A stretch of 64,000 bases of DNA from an uncultured Bacillota bacterium (GCA_946630315.1 CAMOYT010000002.1:562-64561), one strand, 5' to 3'. Positions 1 through 56,323 are shown, numbered from the stretch's first letter. Numbers and translations are program-made. Notes: generated from the letters alone by a model not told the origin.

Positions 1-1
1 A

Positions 2-463
2 TCAACATCAGATTATCAATATAATATAATATCAGAAAGTGATGTTAAAAATGCAGTAGAAGAAGTATATGGCCCAAACACTTATGAAAAAGCTACTTTT
101 AATTTAGGATGTGGTGATTATACTCTTAACGAAAGTGAAAAAAATTATTATTCTAAAACTGGATGTGGTGGAACCACTGCAACATTTGTAAGCAATATTG
201 TTACTGATTATAAAGCTACTAAGAGTAAATTAGAAATTACTACTGCCTATGCATTTTTTGATGGAATGACAAGCAAGATTTATAAAGATTATAATAAAAC
301 TATTTCTTTAGATGACTATAACGGTGGTAGTACAGAAGAAACAAATGCATATTTAAAAGAGTATGTTAAAACTAATAAAGATAAACTAAATACAATTGTT
401 TATACTTTTGAAAGTACTGATGGAAGTAATTATTACTTTACAGGATTTAAAAATAATAAATAA
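2..463 (+). CDS. hypothetical exported/surface protein, C-terminal part (5' end outside window)
   Basis: The frame is open from the window edge to the TAA at 461-463; the ORF track shows only the last Met-started 65 aa. A hairpin terminator follows. The T-G-C-G-G region loosely resembles ORFs 57758-58606 and 59935-61557. Confidence 0.55.
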   Translation, partial: STSDYQYNIISESDVKNAVEEVYGPNTYEKATFNLGCGDYTLNESEKNYYSKTGCGGTTATFVSNIVTDYKATKSKLEITTAYAFFDGMTSKIYKDYNKTISLDDYNGGSTEETNAYLKEYVKTNKDKLNTIVYTFESTDGSNYYFTGFKNNK

Positions 464-471
464 TAGATTTG

Positions 472-506
472 AAAAAAGTGATATTTTAATCACTTTTTTG
501 TTTTTA
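472..506 (+). terminator. rho-independent terminator
   Basis: Stem aaaagtgat (474-482) pairs with atcactttt (489-497), followed by a T-run. Confidence 0.6.
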
Positions 507-563
507 AAAATGTCATTTTGTACTTGACTATCCTATATTATCGCTTTTCTTCCTAGAATATAG

Positions 564-608
564 AAGTGTGGAAGTGGTAAGAAATACAAACAATGCCACG
601 GAAAGTAG
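564..608 (+). pseudogene. relic 3' end of a SEC-C motif (SecA C-terminus-type zinc-binding) gene
   Basis: Nt 564-605 read K-C-G-S-G-K-K-Y-K-Q-C-H-G-K, then TAG. An in-frame TAG at 561-563 sits immediately upstream, and no further ORF lies upstream. An intact terminator follows. Confidence 0.5.
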
Positions 609-6011: not shown

Positions 6012-8039
6012 ATGAGACTAGAACGATATAAATATCTTCTTGCTTTAATAGACTCTAAAAAAAATAAAATAAGTATCATTAAATTTTTAAAAAAAGATAA
6101 TAAACTATATATGTATGATTTTTATCTACCAAAAGAAAATCAAGAACTATTAGAAGTAAAATCTATAAATGGAATAGAAATATCCTCAATTATAAATAAA
6201 GCAAATGAATCTGATTTTTATGATGATTATCAATTAAGACAATTTAATATAGATACATCTAAATCTTATGAAATAACATTTACTAATGGCAAAACAATAG
6301 ACTTATTAGATGAAAATATAGAAAGTAATATTTTTTATAAGAATCATGATATAAATGAAATTTTAGAGATGTCTGAAGATGTAGAAATAAAAGAAACAGA
6401 AAAGACCAACAATACTATGCTAGATTATGCAAGCACTAATATTAAGTCACTATTAATAATTATCTCTAAAATGCTAAAAAGCGATAAAGACAAAGAACTA
6501 TTTCAAAACTTATTTATAAATTTTAATGAAGTAAATGATAACTATAATAGCGTTAATGAAAATTTAGATATATTGCTATTAAGCACAGAATTACTCCTAT
6601 TAGGAGATAAAATAAATAATATTCCTAATTATTTAGAACTTGCTATAAAAAATAGTATGAGCTTTGATTTTGGAAGCGAAGATATAAGAAAAACAAATAA
6701 TTCTATATTAACTGAAGGAAAAATTGATTATAAAAAATTAATTATTATGATACGTAATTGTATTGCTCATTCAAATTATAAAATATTAGAAGATGGAAGA
6801 ATTAAATTTTATAATGAAGGAAAAAATAAATTAGAAGTAATTGCTACAAAAAATAATATAACAAAAATCTTTAATTATATTTTTAATTATCATTTTCTAG
6901 AAGGTGTATATCCACTAATATATTTAGGCACTTATAATAATGATAATGCACCATTTAATAAAAATACAATTAATGACTTTTTAGATAAAATAGAAGTATA
7001 TGACTTAGGTAATTATCAAATGAAACAAAGCTCTAATAGAGAAAAACAAGATAACTTAGATACTATTTTACCTATAGAATTAGCAGGAATAAAAGAAATA
7101 TCTACTAATAATATTTATAATACTTATATGGACAAAGAAGCTTTTGAAAGAAAGACAAAAGAATTAATAAAAAATCATTTAATAATAGAGGAAGAACCTC
7201 ATTTTAAAAGTTTGACTCAAGAAGATATAAATTTTATTTTCAATAATATTAGTGAGCTAGGAGAAGACTATTTTTACAGCTTATCTCAATCTTCCCAAAT
7301 AGAAGTAATTAATAATCTTATATATCAAAAATATGCTAAAGAATACTATATTCAAAAAAATATCCAAGATATTATAAGTACTAATCATTATAGTAATGAT
7401 AGCTTAAAAAATAAAGCTTCTAAATATATAAACTATAAAACTAAATTAGAACTTTTAATAACAACATTACTAAATAATATATTCTTATTCTGTTATAATC
7501 AAAATAAAAGTAATCAGGATGCATCAAGCATCATATTCCCAATGACAATATATAATGATTATCTAGAATCAAAAGTATCTACTTTTTACAATATAACAAC
7601 AGAAGCACAAGATTATAAAGTAATCTATAATATATTATTAAAAAGTGCCTCAACTCATGCTTTTCAAGAAGAAGATTTTGAATTAATAGATGATAAGATC
7701 AAAGAAACCAGAAATAGACTATATAAATTAAGAAATGATATAAGTATGGCTGATAATATAACTGCAAATAAATATAAACCAGAAGAATTAGAAAAAGTAA
7801 ATCAAGAAATATTAAAAAGAATAAGAGATTGTCTAGCTCATGGAAGATTAAAAGTAGAATTAAATTCTATTAATAGTATTGCAGAGGCAAGAATTGAGAT
7901 AATAGATGAATATAATAGCCAAGTACTATTTGAAACAACTATAACATTAGAAGAACTACTAAATACTATTAATAACCAAGATTTTATTAATTCAATATTA
8001 AATAATAATAAAAACTTTGAAAATCATAAAACTATATAG
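6012..8039 (+). CDS. uncharacterised protein with two HEPN-type R-x4-H motifs (putative single-chain dual-HEPN RNase)
   Basis: 675 aa. First motif MIR(248)NCIAH(253)SN at nt 6753-6770; second motif RIR(605)DCLAH(610)GR at nt 7824-7841. SD gtaggtg upstream. The gene is very A+T-rich and Asn/Ile/Lys-rich. Confidence 0.6.
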   Translation: MRLERYKYLLALIDSKKNKISIIKFLKKDNKLYMYDFYLPKENQELLEVKSINGIEISSIINKANESDFYDDYQLRQFNIDTSKSYEITFTNGKTIDLLDENIESNIFYKNHDINEILEMSEDVEIKETEKTNNTMLDYASTNIKSLLIIISKMLKSDKDKELFQNLFINFNEVNDNYNSVNENLDILLLSTELLLLGDKINNIPNYLELAIKNSMSFDFGSEDIRKTNNSILTEGKIDYKKLIIMIRNCIAHSNYKILEDGRIKFYNEGKNKLEVIATKNNITKIFNYIFNYHFLEGVYPLIYLGTYNNDNAPFNKNTINDFLDKIEVYDLGNYQMKQSSNREKQDNLDTILPIELAGIKEISTNNIYNTYMDKEAFERKTKELIKNHLIIEEEPHFKSLTQEDINFIFNNISELGEDYFYSLSQSSQIEVINNLIYQKYAKEYYIQKNIQDIISTNHYSNDSLKNKASKYINYKTKLELLITTLLNNIFLFCYNQNKSNQDASSIIFPMTIYNDYLESKVSTFYNITTEAQDYKVIYNILLKSASTHAFQEEDFELIDDKIKETRNRLYKLRNDISMADNITANKYKPEELEKVNQEILKRIRDCLAHGRLKVELNSINSIAEARIEIIDEYNSQVLFETTITLEELLNTINNQDFINSILNNNKNFENHKTI

Positions 8040-11881: not shown

Positions 11882-14800
11882 CTATATACCTCCATTCATT
11901 ATAATATTTTTAATTCTAACATAATCAAGAGCTGATATTATTTCATCTCCGTTAGCATCTGCCGCCAAGAGCTCCAGCATACCAGCAATTATATTAGTTC
12001 CCATAATATGATTTTTAACTTTAACATAATCTAGAGCTGAAATAGAACTATCTCCATTTATATCACCTCTAACAACATTAGTATATGTATAAATTAAATC
12101 ATCATTTTTATAAATCTTTGTAATACAACCAGTATAGATATATTCTTTATCTCCCATATCTACTTCAATTCTATAATTACTTCCTGCCTCGAAATATGAA
12201 AGATATTTTTCCAATGTAGTATTAGGATCAACCTTATCTATAATCATTACTGCATCATCTACTTCATAATGATTAATTTCAAAGTCCCTTTCTTCAACCC
12301 ATTGTGCATATAAGTCTAAAGTATAACTACCACCATTACTTAAATTACCTAATCTCTCATTAACATCATATCTAGAACCAGAACCATCTTCTTTACTATT
12401 CCAATATGCAAATTGGTATCCTTCTTTAGTAAATTGATTTTCACTAACATTTATACCTTCTCCATAATGATATACTTGATCCTCCATAGAACCATTACCA
12501 CCATTACTATGATATTTAATAGTATAAGTATATATTTCCCATATAGCATATAAATCAACATCACTATTTGGATTAATTGTTTGATCAACTGAATATGAAG
12601 TACCAGATCCATCAGCTTTAGTATTCCACTCAACAAACTTATGACCTTTATAAGTAAAAGTATTATTCTTAATACTTACAGAGTCACCTTGTTCATAAGT
12701 CTCTACTAAAGAATCATTATTACTATTATTACTATGATATGTAATATTAATAGGATTTTCAGGTTCAACTGTAACATTAATAGTACTTACATAGCCATCA
12801 TAATAATTCTTTAAATTAAATGTACTATAACCATACTTATTAGCTTTAATCTTAACATTATTACTATAAATAGTATTATTAGGAGAATTAGTAATAGTAA
12901 TATTATCATTATTGACACCATAACCATATAACTTAATATTATTAGAATTACTTAAATTAATATAATCATCTAAGTATACTTCTTCTCCCTTACTAATTGT
13001 AATATCATATACTTCAGTATATTCAATATCAACATTTTTAAGTAAAGGAATCCTACTAATACCATTAACAGTATCCATTTTCCAATAAGTACTAAAATCA
13101 TCCCAATTATATAAGTTTGGATTACCTAAATTATCATTATCATAAATACTATAACCATTAGTAATATTTAAATTATCACTCTTACTATTTCCAATTAAAC
13201 CTCTACCATCAACAGTATTAGAATAATTATTATTAATAAAATATGTATTAGTAATAAACTTATTAAGTACTATTTCAGCATAATCAGTAATAACACCAAT
13301 AAATGCCCCATAACTATTAGTATTAGGAGTAATATTAGAATATTCAATATTACCAATATTTTCTACATTAGTCATATATACATGTGGTATGAAATCTTCA
13401 TCATTTGATTGATAACCGACAACTTTTCCAATTAAACCACTAGCTGTTTTACCCCCAACATTAGTATTATTAAATATAGTATTAATATTATAATCATTAT
13501 CCCAATCAATACTATTAGAGTCATCTATTAAACCTATTAGAGCACCAGCACTACCATTCTTTGAATAAATAGAGCCATCTATAATATAAATATTTTCAAA
13601 AGTACTAGAACTTAATTCGTAACCTTTATATGCTCCAACTAATCCACCAGCATCACTATTAGTATTAATATCAACATTTCTTATATATAAATCATTAATA
13701 TTAACATTTCCAGTAACAACACCAAATAAACCAGCAGCATCATAATCATTACTAATATTTATATTTTTAATATAATGTCCATCTCCATCAAGACTACCAC
13801 TAAATGGATAATCATTAGTACCAATAGGTACCCAATCACCAGATAATACAATATCATTAGTTAATTTATAAAAAGCATCTAAATTATAAGAAATCTGTTT
13901 TAATTCATTCTCGTTAGAAATAAGATAAGGATCATTATAAGTACCACTACCATTTAAAGTAAATACATCACCAACAAGTACTCTAGAAGTAAAAGAATTA
14001 GAACCATAAATAGTATTTAAATAATAAACTCCATCACCAATAGTACTTTTAATTTTTAAATGAGCATTAACATCATTTTTAGAAACAATACCTAAGTCAT
14101 ATGATAAATAACTAGATTTATCAACACCATTACTAGTAGTTAATTTATAAGTAACATTACTACCAGAATTAATATTCTTAGTATTAGAATAAGCATAAAA
14201 ATCATAATAACCACTAACTGGACTACTTAAATTAAAATCAGGTGTCGAAATAACAGCACTATTATCAACATTAGAAGTAAATACACTGATTTGAGAACCT
14301 AAGAAACTAGAATTAGAAGGACTATTAAGATTAACAGAAAAGCTATCTTTATCAATAATAATATTATAAGAACTTAAATCTATTGTATTATACCCAGGCA
14401 TAGAAGCTGTATAAGTAGCAATATCATTATAAGTATCATATCCACTCTTAATAGTAACATTATAAGTAGAATTAGAACTTAAAGCATAAAACTTAATCTT
14501 TTCAATTTTCTCAGATCCTTTAACATTCTTAGTATAATCAATAGTTTCATTAGAAGTATAATACAAAGCAGAAGTATCTATCTTTTTATGATAATAATTA
14601 TCCCAAGTACGATTATTCGTACTAGTAACATCAGTAGCAATATTAATATCAGACTCTAAAGAGTCATATGCTAAATAAGCATATTTATAAGTACTTGAAT
14701 CTCCCCAAGAATTTCTAATTAACCAAGCCCCAGTACCAGTTACTTTATTACTACTAGAACATGAAGAAGTAGATGCATTATGACTAGTACCAGTTTTGCA

Positions 14801-15769
14801 ATAAGAATAACTATAATCATCATCCCATCCAATTATTTGCATAGCATGACCAGCATTTTGTACACAAGAATCATCTACTCTAATTAGATAAGAACCATTA
14901 TTTAGTGAAGCACAACTATGATCAGGAGCTTCAGTTCCAACATATGCTCCACCATAAGTCATAACATATTGCTTAATCAAATTAATATATGTATTAAAGT
15001 AACTAGCATTAATATTTTCAGCAGGTGGAAAACTAGTAGTTTCATTAACTTCAAACAAGCTTTGATTATAATTAAATACTTCATGTAAATTCTTAGAATC
15101 AGTAGAAGTACTAAAAGGAAGAAAATCTTCATTAGTAAGTGCTAATCCAGCTGTCATAATAGATGAAGAGTAAAAATAATTACCACCATTTCCTAATGTA
15201 TGACAACCAAAATCATTATCATAATTTTTAATACCATCAGTACTAGTAGAATAATCAAGTTGTCTAGGAGATAATACTTTACTACTAGAACTATATGTTT
15301 GATTAGAGGTTGCTAAAAGGTAGCTTTCAACTTGTTCAGCAGAAGCAAAAGCCCAACAAATACCTAAAGTCTTTTGATTCTTTAATGGAGTAATAAAATT
15401 CTTACCAGATACATCTCTTAAGTCATATGAACTAGGTAATGTAGCTTCAACATTTTTATTAAAAGAATTAACTTCATATACTTCAGGAATTAATTCTAAT
15501 TTTTCTTGTTCTTCTTCACTCATACTAATATATTCAACAAATTTCGGATTTAAATAAGGAGTATTCTCCTCTTTATTTTTCTCAGTATGAACAATAACAC
15601 CAGTTTTTTCATATACATTTTTTATATAATTCTTTGCTTCTTTAGGTAAATAAGAATAATCACTAGTCTTTAATATAATATCTATTTTATGATTATTAAT
15701 ACTAAGAAAGCCTACAAAAGCAACTAATAGTATGATAAAAGTTGTAATTACATGTTTTAACCTCTTCAT
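11882..15769 (-). CDS. secreted multidomain papain-like (C1) cysteine protease with GLUG-motif region, two Listeria-Bacteroides (Flg_new) repeats and a C-terminal type-I-like dockerin
   Basis: N-terminal TM/signal segment. Catalytic Cys in QKTLGICWAFASAEQ, His in NAGHAMQIIGWDD, Asn/Trp in WLIRNSWG. Repeated GLFG/GGLVG/GALIG/SGLIG motifs. Two repeats of the form Y..NGG...F.Y.G..F..WN...DGSG..Y. The dockerin duplication is GDINGDSSISALDYVKVKNHIM and ADANGDEIISALDYVRIKNIIM (nt 11885-12067). Confidence 0.8.
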   Translation of the reverse strand: MKRLKHVITTFIILLVAFVGFLSINNHKIDIILKTSDYSYLPKEAKNYIKNVYEKTGVIVHTEKNKEENTPYLNPKFVEYISMSEEEQEKLELIPEVYEVNSFNKNVEATLPSSYDLRDVSGKNFITPLKNQKTLGICWAFASAEQVESYLLATSNQTYSSSSKVLSPRQLDYSTSTDGIKNYDNDFGCHTLGNGGNYFYSSSIMTAGLALTNEDFLPFSTSTDSKNLHEVFNYNQSLFEVNETTSFPPAENINASYFNTYINLIKQYVMTYGGAYVGTEAPDHSCASLNNGSYLIRVDDSCVQNAGHAMQIIGWDDDYSYSYCKTGTSHNASTSSCSSSNKVTGTGAWLIRNSWGDSSTYKYAYLAYDSLESDINIATDVTSTNNRTWDNYYHKKIDTSALYYTSNETIDYTKNVKGSEKIEKIKFYALSSNSTYNVTIKSGYDTYNDIATYTASMPGYNTIDLSSYNIIIDKDSFSVNLNSPSNSSFLGSQISVFTSNVDNSAVISTPDFNLSSPVSGYYDFYAYSNTKNINSGSNVTYKLTTSNGVDKSSYLSYDLGIVSKNDVNAHLKIKSTIGDGVYYLNTIYGSNSFTSRVLVGDVFTLNGSGTYNDPYLISNENELKQISYNLDAFYKLTNDIVLSGDWVPIGTNDYPFSGSLDGDGHYIKNINISNDYDAAGLFGVVTGNVNINDLYIRNVDINTNSDAGGLVGAYKGYELSSSTFENIYIIDGSIYSKNGSAGALIGLIDDSNSIDWDNDYNINTIFNNTNVGGKTASGLIGKVVGYQSNDEDFIPHVYMTNVENIGNIEYSNITPNTNSYGAFIGVITDYAEIVLNKFITNTYFINNNYSNTVDGRGLIGNSKSDNLNITNGYSIYDNDNLGNPNLYNWDDFSTYWKMDTVNGISRIPLLKNVDIEYTEVYDITISKGEEVYLDDYINLSNSNNIKLYGYGVNNDNITITNSPNNTIYSNNVKIKANKYGYSTFNLKNYYDGYVSTINVTVEPENPINITYHSNNSNNDSLVETYEQGDSVSIKNNTFTYKGHKFVEWNTKADGSGTSYSVDQTINPNSDVDLYAIWEIYTYTIKYHSNGGNGSMEDQVYHYGEGINVSENQFTKEGYQFAYWNSKEDGSGSRYDVNERLGNLSNGGSYTLDLYAQWVEERDFEINHYEVDDAVMIIDKVDPNTTLEKYLSYFEAGSNYRIEVDMGDKEYIYTGCITKIYKNDDLIYTYTNVVRGDINGDSSISALDYVKVKNHIMGTNIIAGMLELLAADANGDEIISALDYVRIKNIIMNGGI

Positions 15770-17083: not shown

Positions 17084-18421
17084 ATGACATATTCAAGATG
17101 GGCAGATAAAGAAGAAATATTATCTAAAACTACCCAAATCAGTTATGATTCTATAATCAATAAATCAGGCATTGAAATAATGTATGATGATAAACATCTA
17201 TATATTGATGATAAAGAAACACATAACTTAGTAGTGGGTTCAACAGGTAGTGGAAAAACCCAAACTACATTATTACCACAAGTACGTTTAGCAATTAAAG
17301 CAAATGAATCATTTATTGTTAATGATGTACAAGGTGAAATATATGAAAGAGTAAGTGGAGAAGCTAAAAAGAACAATTATAATTTATATGTAATTGATTT
17401 AGAAAATGGAAAAGTAGGTAATAATTACAATCCATTTACTATTCCATATAAATTATATAAAGAAGGAGAAAAAGATACAGCCTTAGATATGATAGAGAAA
17501 ATAGGTTACTACTTCTTAGGACAAGAAAATATTAATAATAATATTGATCCGTTCTGGGAAAATGCTGCTATTAGTCTATTTATTGGTATAACAATCTATT
17601 TATTTGATCATGCTAAAGAAGAAGAAATAAATTTAAATAGTATTTCAAATCTAGTAAATTACTTAGATAAGTTAGAAGACTATATCAAAAATGTTGATAA
17701 AACATCATTAATCTATGCTTATTTAGCAAGTATTGTTTTAGCACCACCAGAAACAAAAGGTTCTATTATCTCAGTATTTAGTCAAAAAATAAAACAATTC
17801 ACAACAAGAGAAAGTATAACTAAAGTACTAAGTGCAACAAACATAAATCTATTAGATATTCAAAAAGAAAAAACAGCTCTCTTTATAATAAATGCTACTA
17901 AGAATACATCACGTAGTCTAGTATCATTAATAATAGATCAAGCTGTCACAGTAGCAATCAGCAAGAATAATAGAGAAAGAAGATTAAATATCTATTTTGA
18001 TGAATTTGAAAACTATAAAGCAATAAAAGATTTTAATGATATCTTAACTATATCAAGAAGTCACAATATTAGATTTAATATCTATTTAAAAAGCTTATTA
18101 GAATTAGACAACACCTATGGCAAAGAAAATAGTGAATTATTAAAAATGTCTTTTGCAAATATTATCTATCTTTTAGCAAATGACTTAGAAACTCTAGAAC
18201 AAATATCTAGATTATGTGGAAGAAAAGATGAAAATACTCCATTAATTACTGTAGAAGAATTAAAAAGATTTGACTACTTTGAAGCCATTATTATATCTCC
18301 AAGGATTTATCCAATTAGAACAAAATTATTACCAGATTATAAAATAGAATGGAAATTTGCAGAAGATAAAGTACCAATAACAGAATTAGAATATACAGAA
18401 AGTCATATATTTAATATCTAA
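17084..18421 (+). CDS. VirD4/TraG/TraD-family type IV coupling-protein-like ATPase, soluble, no N-terminal TM segment
   Basis: Walker A HNLVVGSTGSGKTQTTLLPQ, then FIVNDVQGEIY, NYNPF, DPFWENAA, and Walker B-like LNIYFDEFEN. SD aggaggg upstream. Confidence 0.65.
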   Translation: MTYSRWADKEEILSKTTQISYDSIINKSGIEIMYDDKHLYIDDKETHNLVVGSTGSGKTQTTLLPQVRLAIKANESFIVNDVQGEIYERVSGEAKKNNYNLYVIDLENGKVGNNYNPFTIPYKLYKEGEKDTALDMIEKIGYYFLGQENINNNIDPFWENAAISLFIGITIYLFDHAKEEEINLNSISNLVNYLDKLEDYIKNVDKTSLIYAYLASIVLAPPETKGSIISVFSQKIKQFTTRESITKVLSATNINLLDIQKEKTALFIINATKNTSRSLVSLIIDQAVTVAISKNNRERRLNIYFDEFENYKAIKDFNDILTISRSHNIRFNIYLKSLLELDNTYGKENSELLKMSFANIIYLLANDLETLEQISRLCGRKDENTPLITVEELKRFDYFEAIIISPRIYPIRTKLLPDYKIEWKFAEDKVPITELEYTESHIFNI

Positions 18422-18555: not shown

Positions 18556-19654
18556 ATGGAATTAAGAGAAATAAAAAAAGAACTAGAAGATAAATCTACT
18601 ATTATAAATAATCTATGGAGGTCACTTTGACATTCCTAAAATAGAAGAAGAAATAACTAAATTAGAAGAAAAAACAAATGACTTATCTTTCTGGAATGAT
18701 CGTGAAAGTGCAGAAAAAGTAATTAAAGAGCTAAATGATAAAAAGAATTTAGTTAATAAAATACAAGATTTAAAAAATAAAGTAACAGACAATCTTGGCC
18801 TAATATCATTACTAGAAATAGATATAGATGAAGACAGTATTAATGAATTAGAAAAAGATACAGAAGATTTATCTAAAGAAATAGATGAATTAAATTTATT
18901 ATTACTATTAAATGGACCATATGATAAAAATGATTGTATTGTAGATATTCACTCAGGAGCAGGTGGAACAGAAGCCTGTGATTGGGCTGATATGTTATAT
19001 AGAATGTATTTAAGATATTGTGAAAAGAAGAATTATAAAGTAACAACACTTGATTATCAACCAGGTGAAGAAGCTGGAATAAAAAGTGTATCATTTAAAG
19101 TACAAGGTACATATGCCTATGGTTATTTAAAAAATGAAAAAGGAGTACATCGACTAGTAAGATTATCTCCATTTGATTCAAACAATAGACGACATACATC
19201 TTTTGCATCAATCGAAGTAACACCAGAAATAGAACAAGATAACACTATCGAAATAGATGAAAAAGACCTAAAAATAGATGTTTATAGATCTACAGGAGCC
19301 GGAGGACAAGGAGTAAATACAACAGACTCTGCTGTAAGAATTACTCACTTACCTTCAAAAATAGTTGTAACTTGTCAAAATGAAAGAAGTCAAATTCAAA
19401 ATAAAGAACAAGCTCTACGAGTATTAAAAAACAAATTATTATTAATAAAATTAGAAGAACAAGAAAAAGAATTAAAACAAATTCAAGGAGATCAAAAAAA
19501 CATAGAATTTGGTTCCCAAATAAGAAGTTATGTAATGCATCCATATTCTATGGTTAAAGATCATCGTACTAATGCTGAAACAAGTAATGTTACTAAAGTA
19601 TTAGATGGTGATTTAGATATGTTTATAGAAGAGAATTTAAAAAGAGGTTTATAA
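18556..19654 (+). CDS. prfB: peptide chain release factor 2, translated with a programmed +1 frameshift at 18625-18631
   Basis: Frame 0 (18556-18627) gives MELREIKKELEDKSTIINNLWRSL, then an in-frame TGA at 18628-18630. The +1 frame continues DIPKIEEEITKLEEK... through the SPF motif and GGQ (GAGGQGVNTTDSAVRITHLP) to the stop at 19654. The ORF track shows only the last 220 aa. Confidence 0.92.
18617..18631 (+). promoter_or_regulatory. RF2 autoregulatory frameshift site: internal SD GGAGG, 3 nt, then CTT TGA C
   Basis: The sequence ggaggtcactttgac matches the canonical prfB shift cassette. Confidence 0.9.
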
Positions 19655-27861: not shown

Positions 27862-27948
27862 ATGATTAAAACAATTATAAAATTTAACTTAAAGTATTAT
27901 GTAAATGGCTATGAGAATAGAATATTCTCACTTGTTTTTGACGCATAA
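27862..27948 (+). CDS. candidate 28-aa leader peptide (MIKTIIKFNLKYYVNGYENRIFSLVFDA)
   Basis: The SD aggagtg lies 6-7 nt upstream. The ORF ends 7 nt before the attenuator hairpin and contains the antiterminator arm. Confidence 0.45.
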   Translation: MIKTIIKFNLKYYVNGYENRIFSLVFDA

Positions 27949-27954
27949 AAAACT

Positions 27955-27985
27955 AGAGCCATTTAATGGCTCTTTTTATTTTGGA
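27955..27985 (+). terminator. intrinsic terminator acting as a candidate attenuator upstream of the ABC exporter
   Basis: agagcca (27955-27961), loop tttaa, tggctct (27967-27973), then TTTTATTTT. The upstream copy of aaatggct (27903-27910) can pair with agccattt (27957-27964). Confidence 0.6.
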
Positions 27986-27997
27986 AGGAGTGATATT

Positions 27998-29728
27998 ATG
28001 CAAAAAGCTAAAAACTTTAAAATATTATTCCATTACTTAAAGAATGATAAATTTAAAGTAATAATATATATCTTTTTAGTATTAATGACCTATCTTCCTG
28101 CATTACTAGCAGCTTACTTTTGGGGTAGAGCTGTTGAAGAGTTATTAGTAAAGAACCTATCTGGATTTATATTCTATTTAGGATTTTGGGAAGGTATTTT
28201 TATTATTTGTTACAGTCTTTTACAAATACCTAGAGATAAATTATATAATTATTTTGAAATCAAGTTCATGAATGAAGTATCTATTGATCTATATAAAAAG
28301 ATAGATAATCTACCAGCAATAGCATTTGAAGATATAGGAGTAGGAGAATTTATAAATAGACTCTATAATGACACAGATAGAGTAATGTCCCTATTAAATT
28401 CACTTATAAAACTAGTCTGTAAAGGCTTTGTCGTAATAGTAGTACTATTCTTATCATTTTATATCTCTATTATATTAGGATTAGAAATACTATTATTCGC
28501 AACTCTAATGGGTATAATAAGTTATTTCTTCTTCCCAAGAATAAAGAAGACACAAGAAAAGATCAAGAAACAATCAGATGAATATGTTAAGAACGCTACT
28601 GAAAATATCACAGGAATAAGAGAAATCAAAGCCTTAGGTATAAAGAAAAATGTCGAAAAGAATATCTTTAATGACCTAAAAAATATCTTTAAAGAAGAAA
28701 AGAATATAAGAAACTACGAAGTATTATACTTTTCTCTAAATAACTTAGCTTATTTTATTCTACAATTTATCATCCTATTAACTGCTGGTAAGTTCTTTAT
28801 AGAAGGAAAAATAGTCTATGCTCTATTTACTATGTTAGATTCATATATCTGGAGAATAGATGAAGTAGTAGAATCTATATCAGACTTTGGAGTTAACTAT
28901 AATAAAGTAACAGTATCTTTAAAAAGAATAGATGAAATAGTAAACAACAAGTTATATGAAGATGAAAAATATGGTACTAAAGAATTAAAGAATACAAAAG
29001 GAGTAATAGACTTTATAGATGTTAAATTCAAATATAAAGAAGATGAAGAATTAACACTAAAAGGTCTAAACCTAAGTCTAGTACCAAATAAAAAGATAGC
29101 TATTGTAGGACGTAGTGGTAATGGTAAAAGTACTTTATTCAATCTATTATTAAGATACTTTGATACTACATCTGGTAAGATATTAATAGATGGAATTGAT
29201 ATAAGAGATTTAAAAGAATCTTCTCTAAGAAACAATATATCTATTATTAGACAAACTCCATTTCTATTTAATATGTCTATTTTAGATAACTTTAAAATAG
29301 TAAAACCAAATGCTACTTTAAAAGAAATAAGAGAAGTATGTAAGAAATCTTATATTGATGATTATATTATGTCACTACCAAATAAATATAATACAGTAAT
29401 TGGAGAAGGTGGAGTAAACTTATCAGGAGGACAAAAACAACGACTAGCAATCGCAAGAACACTATTATTAAACACTAAAATAATATTATTCGATGAAGCT
29501 ACAAGTGCTCTTGATAATGAATCTCAAGAATATATAAAGAAGACTATCGATAACTTAGTAAAAGATCATACTGTAATAATAGTTGCTCACAGACTAAGTA
29601 CTATCGTAGATGCTGATATTATAAATGTCATAGATCAAGGTAAATTAGACTCATCTGGTACACATGAAGAATTATTAAAAAGTTCTAAAGTGTATCAAAA
29701 ACTATATACAATTGACTCAAATTCATAA
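27998..29728 (+). CDS. ABC exporter, fused six-TM permease plus ATPase (multidrug/peptide exporter type)
   Basis: Walker A GRSGNGKST, signature LSGGQKQRLAIAR, Walker B ILFDEATSALD. The start at ATG 27998 follows the SD ggaaggag; the track start at 27905 runs through the terminator hairpin. Confidence 0.85.
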   Translation: MQKAKNFKILFHYLKNDKFKVIIYIFLVLMTYLPALLAAYFWGRAVEELLVKNLSGFIFYLGFWEGIFIICYSLLQIPRDKLYNYFEIKFMNEVSIDLYKKIDNLPAIAFEDIGVGEFINRLYNDTDRVMSLLNSLIKLVCKGFVVIVVLFLSFYISIILGLEILLFATLMGIISYFFFPRIKKTQEKIKKQSDEYVKNATENITGIREIKALGIKKNVEKNIFNDLKNIFKEEKNIRNYEVLYFSLNNLAYFILQFIILLTAGKFFIEGKIVYALFTMLDSYIWRIDEVVESISDFGVNYNKVTVSLKRIDEIVNNKLYEDEKYGTKELKNTKGVIDFIDVKFKYKEDEELTLKGLNLSLVPNKKIAIVGRSGNGKSTLFNLLLRYFDTTSGKILIDGIDIRDLKESSLRNNISIIRQTPFLFNMSILDNFKIVKPNATLKEIREVCKKSYIDDYIMSLPNKYNTVIGEGGVNLSGGQKQRLAIARTLLLNTKIILFDEATSALDNESQEYIKKTIDNLVKDHTVIIVAHRLSTIVDADIINVIDQGKLDSSGTHEELLKSSKVYQKLYTIDSNS

Positions 29729-29818: not shown

Positions 29819-31183
29819 ATGAAAAAGGTTAAAATAAATAATAAATTAATAGCTCTTTTAGTAACAGGAACAATGGTAGTATCAGGTTCAGCACTATTAA
29901 ATAGAAACAATACTGATACAAACAATATTATAAGTAATAATATTGATTATGCTTATGCTAATGAGTTAGAAACAGTAACTACAAAAACAATAATAAATGT
30001 AGAATACAATCAAGAACAAGGAACAAAGACAATTACTTATGAGGTAACTGTAACAAGAGGATTACAAAATGAAACTCATATTGAAACAGAAACAGTACCT
30101 ATGGAATTAAGTGATTATGAAACAAAAGAAGTAATAACAAAAACAGATTTAAATATTAGAAAAGAGCCAAATACTGACTCAGAAATAATTACAACAGTAG
30201 GAGAAAACACTCATCTAGATAGTATTAATCTAGTAGGTGACTGGTATGAAATAATCTATAATGGAGAAAAAGCTTATGTAAAAGCTGAATATACATATGA
30301 AGCAGTAGAAAAAGATGGCTTTAGAAAGCAAACAATGAATTACCAAATAGGTGATTTAGAAATGGCCGCAACAAACTATGTAGAAGCAACAACATCAGTA
30401 AATATAAGAAGTGATGCTACTGCTGATAGTAATAAATTAGGTCTATTAAATGAAGGACAAAAGTTAGAAGTAGTAAGATTACTTACAAACGGTTGGTTTG
30501 AAGTAAAATATAATAATACATTAGCTTATGTAAATGCCGACTTTGTAAGAGAAATAACAGAAGAAAAAATACTTACACCATTTAATAAAATAGTTATGTT
30601 TGAAAATGATTCAGAAGTATATGACAACAAAGATAGAAGTACAGTAATAGACTATGTACCAACTTATGAAATAGCTTTTGTTTATGGAGAAGAAGATGAT
30701 ATGTATTTAGCTCAAGTAAATAATAGATTATCTTATATTAATAAAAGTGATGTAAGTGATTTAGATGAAAAAGTTGTAATAGTAGATTTAAGTGATCAAA
30801 ATGCTAAATTATATGATGGTAATAATGTAATAATAGATACACCAGTAGTATCAGGTAAACCATCTACTCCATCAGATATTGGATACTTTGATATTGATTT
30901 AAAACAACAAGGAGCTACTCTAGAAGGTCCTGGATATAGTTCATATGTAGACTATTGGATGCCATATAATGGTGGAGAAGGATTACATGATGCAGAATAC
31001 CATACTGACTATGATGAGAATGGTAATGCTATAAAATCTCATGGTTGGAGAAGTGCCGATGACTTTGGTGGAGACATTCACGAATATGCTGGATCTCATG
31101 GTTGTATCAACTTACCAAATGAATCAGCTCATATTATCTATGATAATGTAGAAGTAGGAACTAAAGTTTTAATAAAAAAATAA
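29819..31183 (+). CDS. L,D-transpeptidase (YkuD domain) with two SH3b-like domains
   Basis: N-terminal TM segment. Two repeats of the form LNIR..P...S..I......G..L......W.E..YNG..AYV. The C-terminal catalytic motif is GSHGCINLPNE. Confidence 0.82.
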   Translation: MKKVKINNKLIALLVTGTMVVSGSALLNRNNTDTNNIISNNIDYAYANELETVTTKTIINVEYNQEQGTKTITYEVTVTRGLQNETHIETETVPMELSDYETKEVITKTDLNIRKEPNTDSEIITTVGENTHLDSINLVGDWYEIIYNGEKAYVKAEYTYEAVEKDGFRKQTMNYQIGDLEMAATNYVEATTSVNIRSDATADSNKLGLLNEGQKLEVVRLLTNGWFEVKYNNTLAYVNADFVREITEEKILTPFNKIVMFENDSEVYDNKDRSTVIDYVPTYEIAFVYGEEDDMYLAQVNNRLSYINKSDVSDLDEKVVIVDLSDQNAKLYDGNNVIIDTPVVSGKPSTPSDIGYFDIDLKQQGATLEGPGYSSYVDYWMPYNGGEGLHDAEYHTDYDENGNAIKSHGWRSADDFGGDIHEYAGSHGCINLPNESAHIIYDNVEVGTKVLIKK

Positions 31184-31207
31184 AAGAAGCATTGCTTCTT
31201 TTTTTTA
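31176..31207. terminator. bidirectional terminator between convergent genes
   Basis: agaagc (31185-31190) pairs with gcttct (31194-31199), flanked by an A-run and a T-run. Confidence 0.6.
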
Positions 31208-31984
31208 TACTCCATAAGTTTCCCAATAAGATGATGATGCTGTATTACCTCTTTGCTCACCACGATTATATCTATCATCAGGAATTTCAAAGTCAACAGT
31301 CCATTTATAGGCAGCATCATGAGCTCCTTGAGCAGTATTAGGAACATTCTTAAGAGTTTCATAAACACCAGGATAATTATTTTCAAGTTCCCAACATAAG
31401 TACTCAACTTGCCCTTCAACAGTACTAGGATCCAAATTATTATTACTACAAAAACTATTTAAATTCTCCCAACGACTATTATGCCATTGACACAAACCAT
31501 ATGATGTACCATTGTCTCCAACAACAGTAGTATCAAAGCCAGATTCATGTTCCATATTAGCAAGAATACCACAAATAGCAGCATTATTAAATCCTTTATC
31601 TGCTAATCTATTATAAATATCATCTTTAGTAGCATCACCAGTACTAACATTACTACTAGAACCAACAGTCAAAGTACCGCCACTAATACTTAAAACCTTC
31701 TTCATAGCTTCAGTATCACCATTAATATATGCAGTAGCAGTATCATTTAAGTATGAAGAAATAGTACCAAAATTACTAACTAAACTAGTAATTTCACCAT
31801 CAACAGTACCAAAACCTTGTACACAAGAATCACAAATAGGTCCCATAAAAACAGACTCATCATTTAATTTAGATTTACAATTATTCATATCAGTCTGAAT
31901 ACTAGTTATCTTATCAGTAAAAGACTTAGTAGTACTAATTGCATCATTAAAAATACCATAATCAGATACTTTATAATCTTCCAT
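31205..31984 (-). CDS. polymorphic effector: WXG-like N-terminal module plus phage-tail-tip-lysozyme-like peptidoglycan hydrolase domain
   Basis: Residues 1-97 are shared with the two upstream genes. The C-terminus has NAAICGILANMEHESGF and SYGLCQWHNSRW, which match the tail-lysozyme family pattern. No signal peptide. Confidence 0.65.
   Translation of the reverse strand: MEDYKVSDYGIFNDAISTTKSFTDKITSIQTDMNNCKSKLNDESVFMGPICDSCVQGFGTVDGEITSLVSNFGTISSYLNDTATAYINGDTEAMKKVLSISGGTLTVGSSSNVSTGDATKDDIYNRLADKGFNNAAICGILANMEHESGFDTTVVGDNGTSYGLCQWHNSRWENLNSFCSNNNLDPSTVEGQVEYLCWELENNYPGVYETLKNVPNTAQGAHDAAYKWTVDFEIPDDRYNRGEQRGNTASSSYWETYGV
31715..31984 (-). repeat. 270-nt perfect direct repeat, copy 1 (5' end of effector gene)
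   Basis: Identical base for base to 33413-33682 when the two stretches are read side by side. A single mismatch at 31714/33412 is followed by 11 more identical nt. Confidence 0.9.
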
Positions 31985-31995
31985 AATAATCCTCC

Positions 31996-32841
31996 TTAAA
32001 TAACTGTTCCATAATTATCTACAGATGAAACGTTACTACTACTATCCCATTCTAATCCCCATCCAGAAGTATTAGGATTTCCATTAGAATTATAAACATT
32101 TCTATCAACTTCAAACTCTAAAACATTAACACTATTTCCATGAGCATGTCCATAAGTAGTATAGTTAGAATCTCCTGAACTTTTAGCATCAGCAATTACG
32201 CATGGAATAGATTCACCATTTTGGAAATTAACAGTAACATTATCACCAACGTTACCTAAAGCATTAGCAGTTGCAATTAAATAATGATCTGTTCCATCAA
32301 CATTCATAACTGCAATACCATCTTTATATCTTCCACCATCAGCAAGCCAAGCTTCATGAACAGATTTTTGGGCAGTACCATCTGCAACAGCAGTAGGAGT
32401 ACTACCACCACCAAGGTACCAACCACCTTCACCATAACATGTTACAGTATAACCAGCTTGATCAAGATCACTTGGTATCTCACAAGTAGATACTGGAGTA
32501 CCTTTATTAGCTCCAACCCCAGTACTAACTTGACCATTAGTAAGTTTAAGTACAGTTTTCATAGCCTCTGTATCACCATTAACATATGCAGTAGCTGTAT
32601 CATTTAGATATGTAGAAATAGTACCAAAATTGCTAACTAAAGTTGATAAAGCACCATCAACAGTACCAAAACCTTGTACACAGGACTCACAAATAGGTCC
32701 CATAAAAACAGATTCATCATTTAATTTGGATTTACATGTATTCATATCACTTTGAATAGTTGTAATCTTATCATTATAAGCTTTAGTAGTACTGATTGCA
32801 TCATTAAAAATGCCATAATCTGATACTTTATAATCTTCCAT
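31996..32841 (-). CDS. polymorphic effector: WXG-like N-terminal module plus unknown C-terminal domain (possibly 3D/DPBB-like)
   Basis: The N-terminal module is a diverged copy of the shared one. The C-terminus VGDNVTVNFQNGESIPCVIADAKSSGD...VNVLEFEVD is only loosely reminiscent of 3D-domain lytic enzymes. Confidence 0.55.
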   Translation of the reverse strand: MEDYKVSDYGIFNDAISTTKAYNDKITTIQSDMNTCKSKLNDESVFMGPICESCVQGFGTVDGALSTLVSNFGTISTYLNDTATAYVNGDTEAMKTVLKLTNGQVSTGVGANKGTPVSTCEIPSDLDQAGYTVTCYGEGGWYLGGGSTPTAVADGTAQKSVHEAWLADGGRYKDGIAVMNVDGTDHYLIATANALGNVGDNVTVNFQNGESIPCVIADAKSSGDSNYTTYGHAHGNSVNVLEFEVDRNVYNSNGNPNTSGWGLEWDSSSNVSSVDNYGTVI

Positions 32842-32854
32842 ATTATCACCTACT

Positions 32855-33682
32855 TTATATTAAATATCCAAATGGATCTCCTCCATTAGGAGCAAAACCT
32901 ACAAATACATAAGAAGCACCATAAGTATTATTAATAACTGTTTCTCCAGGAATATAATCACTCCTATTATTAACACTACCAGTACTGATACTATTAATAT
33001 CACTTAAACAGTCATGTTCAACAACATTAGATTCTAAATATCTATTACCATCATTAAGCACATCTTTAGCCGCATTATAATAGTCATCACCTGGATAACT
33101 ATAGCCACTTCTAGATCCTGATGCAAACCAGCCACTATTATCAACATAATCTCTAACACTACTATAATTACCTTTATTCTTCTCATATAAGTTAGCCATT
33201 AGAGATAATTCTAATTTAGCACCATCAATACTACCTTGCTCCCTCATCGCAACATAAGCAAGATGTGCTAAGTCATCATCAGATAAATTATACTTATCAC
33301 CACTAGTAACAGGTGTACTTGGATTAATAACATTTCCATCCAAAGTAACACCACCACTACCAACACTAACACTATTACCACTAAGAGCAAGAACCTTATT
33401 CATAGCTTCAGAATCACCATTAATATATGCAGTAGCAGTATCATTTAAGTATGAAGAAATAGTACCAAAATTACTAACTAAACTAGTAATTTCACCATCA
33501 ACAGTACCAAAACCTTGTACACAAGAATCACAAATAGGTCCCATAAAAACAGACTCATCATTTAATTTAGATTTACAATTATTCATATCAGTCTGAATAC
33601 TAGTTATCTTATCAGTAAAAGACTTAGTAGTACTAATTGCATCATTAAAAATACCATAATCAGATACTTTATAATCTTCCAT
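32855..33682 (-). CDS. polymorphic effector: WXG-like N-terminal module plus unknown C-terminal domain (possibly SleB/CwlJ-like hydrolase)
   Basis: The N-terminal 90 aa are identical to those of 31205-31984. The C-terminus DLAHLAYVAMREQGSIDGAKLELSLMANLYEKN...GWFAS loosely fits the Hydrolase_2 pattern. Confidence 0.55.
   Translation of the reverse strand: MEDYKVSDYGIFNDAISTTKSFTDKITSIQTDMNNCKSKLNDESVFMGPICDSCVQGFGTVDGEITSLVSNFGTISSYLNDTATAYINGDSEAMNKVLALSGNSVSVGSGGVTLDGNVINPSTPVTSGDKYNLSDDDLAHLAYVAMREQGSIDGAKLELSLMANLYEKNKGNYSSVRDYVDNSGWFASGSRSGYSYPGDDYYNAAKDVLNDGNRYLESNVVEHDCLSDINSISTGSVNNRSDYIPGETVINNTYGASYVFVGFAPNGGDPFGYLI
33413..33682 (-). repeat. 270-nt perfect direct repeat, copy 2 (5' end of effector gene)
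   Basis: Identical to 31715-31984. A third, diverged copy occupies about 32550-32841. Confidence 0.9.
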
Positions 33683-33691
33683 TTAATAACC

Positions 33692-33979
33692 TCAAATCTG
33701 CAAAGCAGCTAATTCACTTTCTAATTTTTCAATAGCTTCACTTGCAGCTTTAATAAAAGTACCTAATGCTTCCATCTCTTTAGAATTAGTTTGTGCAACT
33801 TTAATTTGTCCATCACTAGTAGATTTATAACTAGTCTTAGCAGTACCAGTCCATTGACTTAAATTACCATCAATAGTAGATGAATAACTACTAGTTGCTC
33901 CATTCATTTCTCCTGCACTATCTATTAATTGTTGTCCAATAGAAGCCACAGTTGCAAAATCACATACATATTTAGCCAT
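33692..33979 (-). CDS. WXG100 family (ESAT-6/EsxA-like) protein
   Basis: 95 aa with a helix-turn-helix layout and a central W-T-G (LSQWTGTAKTSY). SD aaaggagg upstream. Confidence 0.8.
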   Translation of the reverse strand: MAKYVCDFATVASIGQQLIDSAGEMNGATSSYSSTIDGNLSQWTGTAKTSYKSTSDGQIKVAQTNSKEMEALGTFIKAASEAIEKLESELAALQI

Positions 33980-34148
33980 ATTAAATCCTCCTTTAGGATA
34001 TATTATTCTAGATTAATTTTACCATTTTCTATCATTTAAATCATTACTTTTTTTTCATAAAATCATTATTTGACAATATTTCACAATTAACATACCTTGT
34101 TTAATAACAAACAAAATGATAAAATATAAGAGATTTTGAGGTGATATT

Positions 34149-55672: not shown

Positions 55673-56323
55673 ATGACAAAGATAAGATTATTAACAAATC
55701 AAAGCCAAACCTTAAAAGAACTATTAAATAAGATAAATGTTAATGAACACATCAGCTTAGAAATAGAATTAGAAAATAATGAAACACTATTACTAAATTT
55801 AGAAATAAGTCCATATGAAAAAATAAATATTATAAATACTTTATTAAGCAAAAATATAATAAGTAGTGCCATACATATAGATCATAAAGAAAAATTAAAA
55901 AACTCATATACATTAAACAAACTAAATATAAATAGACAAATAAAAATATATAAAGATCAATTTAGAAGAGAAGTACTTTTTGAGTTACTAGATATATTAC
56001 ATAGATTAGGTATAAAAACACATCATCTAGGTTACACTTATATAAAAGAAGCTATATACATTGTCTACTACAATAAAACAATTATTAATAATATGACTGA
56101 AGTATATAAAAAAATAAGTATAAAATATAATACTTCAATATCAAGTGTAGAAAGTAATATAAGAAGAGCAATAGAAGAAGGCTTTAAAAATGCCTCTCCT
56201 GATGACATAAAACAAATATTTGGCTATAGCTTAGATTATCAAAATGTTTGTCCTACTAACTCAGTCTTTATATTAACTATCTCCGATATCTTAAAAACTA
56301 AATTTAATAGATATAATAATTAG
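55673..56323 (+). CDS. Spo0A C-terminal-domain-like DNA-binding protein without recognisable receiver domain
   Basis: HRLGIKTHHLGYTYIKEAIYIV...YKKISIKYNTSISSVESNIRRAIEEGF fits the Spo0A_C pattern. The N-terminal 95 aa lack the acidic pocket. No SD is present, and the ATG lies 2 nt after the terminator T-run. Confidence 0.55.
   Translation: MTKIRLLTNQSQTLKELLNKINVNEHISLEIELENNETLLLNLEISPYEKINIINTLLSKNIISSAIHIDHKEKLKNSYTLNKLNINRQIKIYKDQFRREVLFELLDILHRLGIKTHHLGYTYIKEAIYIVYYNKTIINNMTEVYKKISIKYNTSISSVESNIRRAIEEGFKNASPDDIKQIFGYSLDYQNVCPTNSVFILTISDILKTKFNRYNN

Follow-up and report, generated by a model that had tools for sequence, protein, structure and literature searches.

Type VIIb secretion in the Bacillota has been studied almost wholly as a means of toxin delivery and virulence, and both the recognition of its substrates and their passage across the wall are open questions. 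The closest described relatives of the system reported here are the LXG toxins with their Lap or WXG100-like partners, the mycobacterial PE-fusion substrates of ESX systems, and the EsxA/EsxB pairs. The motif YxxxD/E directs export in type VIIa systems, and a related FxxxD motif in Lap1 is needed for the export of LXG toxins (PMC10801868). The locus described here lies in a 64,000 nt stretch of DNA (the window) from an uncultured Bacillota bacterium (GCA_946630315.1, CAMOYT010000002.1:562-64561), where a gene for a small WXG100-type protein is followed by three genes for candidate cell wall hydrolases that begin with the same N-terminal module, or head, of about 97 residues. The heads are, on balance, probably EsxB/PE-like targeting modules; by pairing with the WXG100 protein they would serve type VII-like export, and the enzymes would then most likely act on the wall of the producer.

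Four tightly packed open reading frames (ORFs) on the minus strand, running from 33979 to 31205, form one operon and code for proteins of 95, 275, 281 and 259 aa; successive genes stand 9, 13 and 11 nt apart, and an AGGAGG-like ribosome-binding site lies ahead of each of the four genes. The first ORF (33692..33979; all features of the operon are on the minus strand) encodes the WXG100-type protein, a presumed EsxA-like partner, and the three larger products are named E1 (275 aa, 32855..33682), E2 (281 aa, 31996..32841) and E3 (259 aa, 31205..31984). In E1 the module is followed by a Gly/Ser linker and a DUF7017-type domain, in E2 by a disordered linker and a putative double-psi beta-barrel (DPBB) domain of the RlpA/3D/expansin-like kind, and in E3 by a Phage_lysozyme2 domain. 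A simple hydropathy scan detected no hydrophobic N-terminus or transmembrane segment in the four operon proteins, and the same scan found a signal-like or membrane segment in the neighboring YkuD protein. These results bear out much of the initial annotation of this DNA, which had described the same ORF layout and gaps (the coordinates agree), a common N-module of about 97 aa in all three effectors (DNA identity of 87–99.3% over the first 291 nt), cargo domains unrelated to each other (similarity among the C-termini is not detectable) and the lack of signal peptides.

The 95-aa protein has W43-T44-G45 at its center, and W43 is invariant in 19 homologues. It scores E = 8.8e-5 (23.1 bits, cut-off 27.3) with the Pfam WXG100 model (PF06013) and E = 3e-5 (24.1 bits, cut-off 44.85) with TIGR03930. 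When a profile of the 19 homologues was searched against the PDB, the top matches were almost exclusively solved WXG100 chains (E = 4e-4 to 0.06), led by T. curvata EsxB (4lws_B, E = 4.3e-4) and CFP-10 (1.4e-3), and including ESAT-6, B. anthracis EsxB, S. aureus EsxA, G. thermodenitrificans EsxA and S. agalactiae SAG1039. On these profile matches it is accepted as a divergent member of the WXG100 superfamily. The earlier description of a WXG100 protein is therefore right as to family, since EsxA, EsxB, ESAT-6 and CFP-10 chains are found first.

The modules occupy residues 1-97 of E1 (33392..33682), E2 (32551..32841) and E3 (31694..31984; module hidden Markov model (HMM) match E = 4.5e-41). Those of E1 and E3 are 99.3% identical at the DNA level over the first 291 nt (2 differences), after which identity collapses, and the E2 module DNA is 87% identical to that of either E1 or E3; such identity is far beyond chance. 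AlphaFold2 models of E1 and E2 (mean predicted local distance difference test (pLDDT) scores of 85 and 83) show the module as two long helices, at residues 10-47 and 49-87 in E1 and 10-40 and 49-101 in E2, with F46-M-G48-P49 at the turn between them; pLDDT is about 75–87 within the module, which is followed by a low-confidence Gly/Ser/Thr linker and then a confident globular domain. In Foldseek searches of the PDB, with template modelling (TM) scores normalized to the target, the best compact matches were WXG100-type hairpins; the E2 module matched T. curvata EsxA/EsxB (4lws_A) and G. thermodenitrificans EsxA (3zbh_H) at a probability of 1.00, a TM-score of 0.79 and a root-mean-square deviation of 2.2 Å. 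The E1 module matched B. anthracis EsxB, S. aureus EsxA, EsxGH, EsxEF, CFP-10/ESAT-6 and PE25-PPE41, with TM-scores of 0.40–0.72 overall and of 0.64–0.72 for EsxB, EsxA, EsxGH and PE25-PPE41.

In an alignment of 135 modules the near-invariant residues are Y9 (134 sequences), F12 (124), F46 (131), G48 (132), P49 (127), Y86 (133) and D90 (133), so defining a hydrophobic-x-Gly turn (F-x-G-P) and a Y-x-x-x-D motif (Y86/D90) where helix 2 ends. Profile-profile alignment of the module with the WXG100 partner family (hhalign) placed F-M-G on W-x-G, with E-values of 0.02 (global) and 0.069 (local). The earlier proposal of a WXG100-like hairpin with F-M-G in the position of W-x-G thus stands on AlphaFold2, Foldseek and profile alignment, and its separation of the module from LXG domains also holds: the LXG model (PF04740) gave no match at E ≤ 1, and the module is about half as long (~97 versus ~200 residues). 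Among 82 full-length members of the module family, Pfam detects T7SS_ESX_EspC in seven and WXG100 in four. Free-standing versions of the module of about 100 aa also exist, one of them (locus L011) directly after a WXG100-like gene, in the manner of EsxA/EsxB. PDB sequence searches with the module, E1 and E2 returned nothing but coronavirus spike HR1 and bromodomain matches, which were rejected as composition-driven and spurious; the match of module residues 25-89 (E1-E3) to spike HR1 is formally significant (E = 5e-6) and appears to reflect heptad composition ('...SNFG.IS..LND...'), a warning of false positives with this family.

Conserved cysteines occur in both halves of the putative pair. 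Cys6 of the WXG100 protein (33962-33964) is invariant in the 19 homologues, and all three modules carry Cys51-x-x-Cys54 (33521-33532, 32680-32691 and 31823-31834). Cys54 is found in 98 of the 135 modules, and in every locus where the module and a partner of the 'MAKYVC' type occur together, the module motif not having been read in L010 9947-10777 and L019. An intermolecular disulfide or a metal site between Cys6 and the module cysteines is conceivable, since an antiparallel dimer like EsxA/EsxB would put the N-terminus of the partner near the turn of the module.

Of the three cargo domains that of E3 is the clearest. Residues 120-253 (Pfam envelope 31226..31627) span positions 3-137 of the 140 in the Phage_lysozyme2 profile (PF18013), with E = 2.3e-32 and 112.5 bits against a cut-off of 28.2, and the domain also matches tape-measure lysozyme families in PHROG (E = 5e-21); its resemblance to sequenced phages is remote (<37% identity). 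It is solidly assigned as a Phage_lysozyme2 domain with a predicted lysozyme activity. The E2 domain (residues ~118-281, 31999..32490) has no Pfam match, but in fold it comes closest, among PDB entries, to kiwellin (E = 5e-3), expansins and the p97 N domain, which without exception have DPBB folds; TM-scores are low because the query was the whole two-domain model. In an alignment of 50 proteins D200, D218, D224, H232, E242 and E244 are invariant, and the domain fits an RlpA/3D/MltA-type enzyme, without this being proof. The E1 domain (residues ~118-275, 32858..33331) has no Pfam match in the window copy, PF07486 (SleB/CwlJ Hydrolase_2) included, and E1 has no sequence relative in the PDB; 20 of 66 homologues match PF22860 (DUF7017; best E = 7e-7), a family for which no mention was found in the literature searched. 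Residues invariant in the 66-protein alignment include E148, E158, E222, H223 and D224, and the domain is 63–85% identical across many proteins from metagenome-assembled genomes (MAGs). The only hint at a function comes from BFVD, where phage models bearing the name 'SleB' or 'cell wall hydrolase' match weakly in fold (E = 0.07–0.24), and E1 may be a SleB-like wall hydrolase.

The initial annotation had named a phage-tail-tip lysozyme among the cargo and suggested HMM searches of the C-domains, and PF18013 was recovered from E3 and no Pfam family from E1 or E2 of the window. Its looser guess of a 3D/DPBB enzyme finds agreement at fold level, in the kiwellin and expansin matches of E2, but not in Pfam, and its SleB/CwlJ guess corresponds to the weak fold matches of E1. 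The order in which these two guesses were given needs correction: the 281-aa protein is the DPBB-like one and the 275-aa protein the one reminiscent of SleB.

The operon belongs to a larger family. A first, word-indexed search with the module found five proteins and made the family look tiny, but an exhaustive search of 1.84 billion representative proteins with the module HMM gave 192 clusters, and in nearly all of the best 150 of these matches the module is at the very N-terminus. Pfam matches to the cargo of the 82 full-length members were Phage_lysozyme2 (11), NlpC/P60 (11), Glucosaminidase (9), CHAP (8), Peptidase_C39_2 (7), M23 (3), ELLD (3), M15_4 (2), Amidase_5 (2), Hydrolase_2 (2) and NAGPA (1); nuclease, NADase and deaminase families, which are typical cargo of LXG toxins, are all missing from the 25 Pfam families listed for these members. 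Almost all of the identifiable cargo is thus predicted to be peptidoglycan hydrolases. A complementary search with the C-domains of E1 and E2 found 243 proteins, and among the best 120 (51–100% identical to the window domains) the domain is attached to this module in 64, to other helical heads lacking a signal in 55, and to a Sec-like signal in one. By inspection the 55 other heads fall into about eight sequence types, several of them with W-x-G and matching WXG100, PPE or T7SS_signal models. All named hosts are MAGs of uncultured gut 'Bacilli', 'Tenericutes' and 'Erysipelotrichaceae' with 26–33% GC. Literature searches found no description of peptidoglycan hydrolases with WXG-type heads.

Gene order around the operon is strongly conserved. 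In all relatives (WXG100 proteins 63–99% identical) it lies beside uvrB, and in all except GCA_016648615.1 it is followed by a convergent gene for an SH3-YkuD L,D-transpeptidase and, a few kb further on, by FtsEX-PcsB. Close relatives have the same three effectors, while more distant ones have the WXG100 gene and the lysozyme effector only; since E3 is the sole effector at the locus in the latter, it is evidently the ancestral one, and E1 and E2 arose afterwards, when the module was fused to new catalytic domains. In further distant lineages effectors occur with one to three small WXG100-like genes, additional hydrolases with helical heads, a MurJ-like flippase and YkuD. A gene for an ABC_membrane/ABC_tran exporter (27905-29728, plus strand), two genes from the operon, is present in the three-effector relatives L001 and L002 and absent at this position in the one-effector relatives L005, L008 and GCA_016648615.1; with so few genomes, this co-occurrence may be a coincidence.

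Identity to the window proteins in relatives is 92–94% for UvrB, 81–83% for the catalytic domains, 66–78% for the N-modules, 66–79% for the WXG100 protein and 50–54% for YkuD, and the catalytic domains are evidently under purifying selection. The modules of one genome are more alike than are orthologous modules of different genomes. In the conspecific contig L001 (UvrB 100% identical), the E1 module is 90% identical in protein and 92.4% in DNA and the E1 C-domain is identical, indicating that the window strain recently overwrote the E1 head with that of E3. Judged from these comparisons, the heads of a genome are homogenized by gene conversion, and such concerted evolution, together with the similar rates of heads and WXG100 protein, is as expected if all heads must fit one partner.

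In the mechanism proposed, the head would form the EsxB/PE-like half of a WXG100-type heterodimer and pair with the co-encoded WXG100 protein (the EsxA/PPE-like half, with W-x-G), giving a four-helix bundle with an export signal of type VII style on display. The complex would be moved over the membrane by a type VII-like ATPase and channel whose genes lie elsewhere in the genome, and the flexible Gly/Ser linker would allow the catalytic domain to reach the wall. We infer these four steps, and with them the export route and the target; there is direct support for the structure of the genes, for fold and motifs, for the cargo of the family, and for synteny and concerted evolution. Several results weigh on the other side. 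The 95-aa protein lies under the curated cut-offs of both PF06013 and TIGR03930, sequence comparison leaves the homology of module and WXG100 protein marginal, no Pfam or NCBIfam model reaches threshold with the window modules, and the Foldseek E-values of the modules exceed 0.1, as is to be expected for a fold as simple as a helical hairpin. Two of the three putative catalytic assignments (E1 and E2) are weak, being made at fold level, and the case for a self-acting role is built from negative and comparative evidence. A few distant loci have, after the effector, a lipoprotein or multi-transmembrane ORF that could be an immunity gene. Genes of the EssC/EsaA/EssB type are absent from the 64-kb window and from within 10 kb of about 43 related loci.

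As to what the exported enzymes would do, the initial annotation had left two roles side by side, one directed at competitors and one self-acting, and the evidence leans to the second. Most likely the enzymes remodel the wall of the cell that makes them, in growth, turnover or separation or to make openings for machines, and do not kill neighbors, since the core locus lies among wall genes, the catalytic domains are conserved, an immunity gene is missing and the cargo is limited to hydrolases. That the same export instead delivers antibacterial effectors, which attack the walls of competing or host bacteria while immunity is encoded elsewhere or conferred by modified peptidoglycan of the producer, is unlikely, though it is the main rival reading. 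Type VIIb systems are best known for interbacterial toxins, among them TelC, whose target, lipid II, is attacked outside the membrane; polymorphic toxins are built in this manner, one head being combined with many catalytic tails; there are several copies per genome, and the locus grew from one effector to three; and for small, low-GC genomes, feeding on neighbors is conceivable. Polymorphic toxins, however, keep the N-terminus and vary the C-terminus, whereas here the locus is a fixed, core one and conservation is higher in the catalytic domains than in the heads, and the wall hydrolases are not accompanied by the nucleases, NADases and pore-formers typical of LXG toxins. No immunity-sized ORF lies between or after the operon genes in the window, nor in or next to the operon in close relatives. 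The earlier statement that immunity genes are missing thus holds for the window but has to be qualified for the few distant relatives mentioned above, and the candidates downstream of effectors at those other loci are heterogeneous, mutually unrelated and not homologous from one locus to the next. An ORF of about 340 aa that seemed to recur near effectors proved to be an HExxH protein confined to close relatives and unrelated to ORFs of similar size elsewhere.

The search for the secretion machine itself agrees with the initial annotation, which had noted no type VII core genes in the 64 kb: a gene of the size of EssC or EsaA is lacking, and the only window ORFs longer than 900 aa encode a papain/dockerin protein and UvrA. 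The former (1,295 aa, 11882-15769), considered for EssC on account of its size, is a papain-like protease with Listeria-Bacteroides repeats and a dockerin. The roughly 10 kb past the right end of the window, which hold the S10-spc ribosomal operon with SecY, likewise contain no EssC/EsaA/EssB-type gene. Type VII substrates are often encoded far from the secretion machine, and the absence of machinery near these loci is for that reason not counted against export. A related contig of 31% GC (L032, 1-21467) carries an island of about 17 kb in which a DUF4176 gene and three WXG100 pairs occur together with at least seven wall hydrolases, the latter with shared helical heads of two or three classes and including two paralogues with near-identical heads. 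Upstream of this island, and in L039 7417-10805, there is a cassette of a DUF4176 gene (93 aa), three genes for small helical proteins, a gene for a protein of 452–464 aa, a tandem DUF4176 gene (200 aa) and an ORF of about 80 aa; a metagenome scan with the DUF4176 gene of L032 led to L039 and to L038 3830-7357, both of which hold DUF4176, small helical proteins and a 464-aa protein but no EssC. The cassette looks like one for an LXG-type toxin, with a putative toxin that belongs to no Pfam family. DUF4176 proteins are dedicated chaperones of type VIIb toxins (PMC12478183, PMC10801868), and because the L032 island combines DUF4176 chaperone genes with WXG100 pairs, at least some of these organisms very probably have a type VIIb system.

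It is improbable, though the lack of any type VII core gene in the window or at related loci gives the idea some weight, that the effectors are not type VII substrates at all. The head would then be a regulatory or docking coiled coil, such as that of PcsB, CwlO, EnvC or RipC (FtsEX coupling), or the proteins would leave the cell by another route that needs no signal: through a membrane protein of the holin kind, through the nearby ABC exporter or upon cell lysis. FtsEX-PcsB lies 7–10 kb away, a gene of the Phage_holin_4_2 family is conserved about 6 kb away, an ABC_membrane/ABC_tran exporter is found two genes away in the three-effector relatives only, and the sequence similarity of head and WXG100 protein is marginal. 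On the other hand, the first gene of the operon is of the WXG100 type and travels with the effectors across all relatives, and in its length, its turn motif and its YxxxD the head agrees with type VII substrates. Coiled-coil hydrolases of the PcsB type carry Sec signals, unlike the operon proteins, and the gene order to which FtsEX and the holin-family gene belong is conserved widely, while in other lineages the two do not accompany the effectors. Least credible, to the point of being very improbable, is a remnant of a prophage or mobile element in which enzymes of phage tails or of lysis would work solely from inside the cell, during lysis or DNA transfer: the E3 catalytic family does occur in phage tape-measure and tail proteins and a VirD4-like ATPase gene lies 13 kb away, but the module is absent from 2.9 million viral contigs (IMG/VR), the E3 lysozyme domain alone matches PHROG families (the WXG100 protein, E1 and E2 match none), the flanks hold uvrB, YkuD, FtsEX-PcsB and ribosomal operons in place of phage genes, and the locus is syntenic across species while the VirD4-like gene is missing at that position in one relative.

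The reading preferred here, of WXG100-paired heads and a type VII-like route, can be extended to a bolder and more doubtful one. In the lineage as a whole, most peptidoglycan hydrolases may possibly have been shifted off Sec and be exported as housekeeping autolysins by the WXG100/type VII-like route, by means of at least eight interchangeable classes of EsxB/PE-like heads of about 100 residues, the present module being one class, with gene conversion matching the heads to their WXG100 partner. In that case cell wall growth would be a core function of type VII-like secretion, beyond competition or virulence. The compact head of about 97 residues, with its turn motif and YxxxD, is attached almost only to peptidoglycan hydrolases and, should export be confirmed, would be a minimal tag for type VII targeting, and a portable one; an entire set of enzymes that remodel the wall could then depend on a type VII pathway, giving the system a housekeeping role in a poorly known group of gut bacteria. 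The DUF7017-type domain and the new DPBB-type domain are also two wall-enzyme candidates for biochemistry.

At its 3' end the operon is separated from the convergent YkuD gene by a bidirectional, intrinsic-terminator-like hairpin (31182..31202), which has a 9-bp stem and T runs on both strands. Upstream, an AT-rich intergenic spacer of about 170 nt (33980..34148; read on the minus strand) is common to the operon and the divergent uvrB, and holds AAAGGAGGA, the ribosome-binding site of the WXG100 gene. The operon promoter is presumed to lie in this spacer, where TGGTAAAAT is an extended -10-like element; a promoter consensus scan of the spacer gave weak sites, no commoner than in shuffled sequence. 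Rfam and tRNA scans of the window found no RNA elements.

Several other features of the window deserve mention. The VirD4/TraG-type coupling ATPase (17084-18421, plus strand; 445 aa, T4SS-DNA_transf E = 3e-31) has no predicted membrane segment and its gene adjoins one for a small AraC regulator, with no other conjugation genes noticed nearby; different genes occupy the position in GCA_016648615.1, and it may be a mobile-element remnant. At 18556-19654 (plus strand) lies an apparent prfB (release factor 2) with the usual programmed +1 frameshift: a 24-codon ORF ending in '...NLWRSL*' precedes the main release factor sequence in another frame, and a naive ORF caller would split the gene. The papain-family C1 protease at 11882-15769 (minus strand) ends in a type I dockerin, which implies that a gut Bacillus with a small genome has a cohesin partner for it; a relative encodes a conserved counterpart of 1,304 aa. 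A 216-aa protein with a Spo0A_C domain (55673-56323, plus strand), seen by way of an identical region in contig L043, raises the question of sporulation, which bears on the SleB-like hint for E1. Other assemblies of the species also have the ORF of 675 aa at 6012-8039 (plus strand), a conserved one for which neither a Pfam match nor a membrane segment is predicted. Near the left end (window 1-600), two independent metagenome contigs with the first genes of the window, L040 and L041, both stop near 588, some 95 bases short of the gene at 683, and from the L043 offset the start of a 107-kb scaffold would fall there as well, which suggests a repeat or other assembly-breaking element just upstream of about position 588.

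Among the systems with which the operon may be compared are the peptidoglycan hydrolase effectors of type VI secretion (Tae/Tge); they too lack a Sec signal and have a specialized delivery, but the machine is unrelated and they are aimed at competitors. They are, as far as is known, always paired with periplasmic immunity proteins. EssH of the S. aureus type VIIb system is likewise a wall hydrolase of a Gram-positive bacterium tied to type VII secretion (PMC13059805, PMC13492133). It differs in being a helper that enables the machine to cross the wall, rather than a WXG-tagged substrate, and in being encoded in the ess locus. We take it to use a Sec signal.

A further comparison is with the EsxA/EsxB pairs (ESAT-6/CFP-10, S. 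aureus EsxA, B. anthracis EsxB), which the 95-aa protein resembles by profile and the module by fold, and to whose arrangement the free-standing 100-aa module beside WXG100 genes corresponds; here, in contrast, the EsxB-like half carries an enzyme of 160–180 residues and the curated WXG100 thresholds are missed. The mycobacterial PE-fusion ESX substrates also have a hairpin of about 100 residues, with YxxxD/E after helix 2, fused by a linker to an enzyme, as in LipY, which Daleke et al. are said to have described as a fusion of a PE domain and a lipase. The PE half pairs with a partner bearing WxG, and PE25-PPE41 is itself among the fold matches of the module. Counted from the N-terminus, Y86/D90 presumably stand roughly where the PE motif does. 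The operon differs from these fusions in belonging to another phylum (low-GC Bacilli), in having a module with no PE/PPE sequence signature and a 95-aa WXG100 partner instead of a PPE protein, and in having no ESX locus in view.

The LXG toxins with Lap or WXG100-like partners (TelA-LapA3-LapA4 and TelC of Streptococcus intermedius) share with the operon an N-terminal helical head and a variable C-terminal enzyme, a small helical partner gene immediately upstream, the lack of a Sec signal, a hydrophobic-x-Gly turn, and an acidic 'export arm', the FxxxD of Lap1, which resembles YxxxD/E (PMC10801868). TelC, like the predicted enzymes here, acts outside the membrane on the wall pathway. The differences are that the head has ~97 rather than ~200 residues and gives no match to the LXG family in Pfam, that the window has one partner gene instead of a Lap1/Lap2 pair (some distant relatives have two further genes of about 99 aa), that YxxxD is on the effector itself, that no immunity gene is found here, and that the cargo consists almost only of peptidoglycan hydrolases in a fixed core operon as opposed to a variable island. 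By length, HMM match, Lap pair and immunity gene the system stands outside the LXG family, but it would work like the LXG/Lap or PE-fusion substrates.

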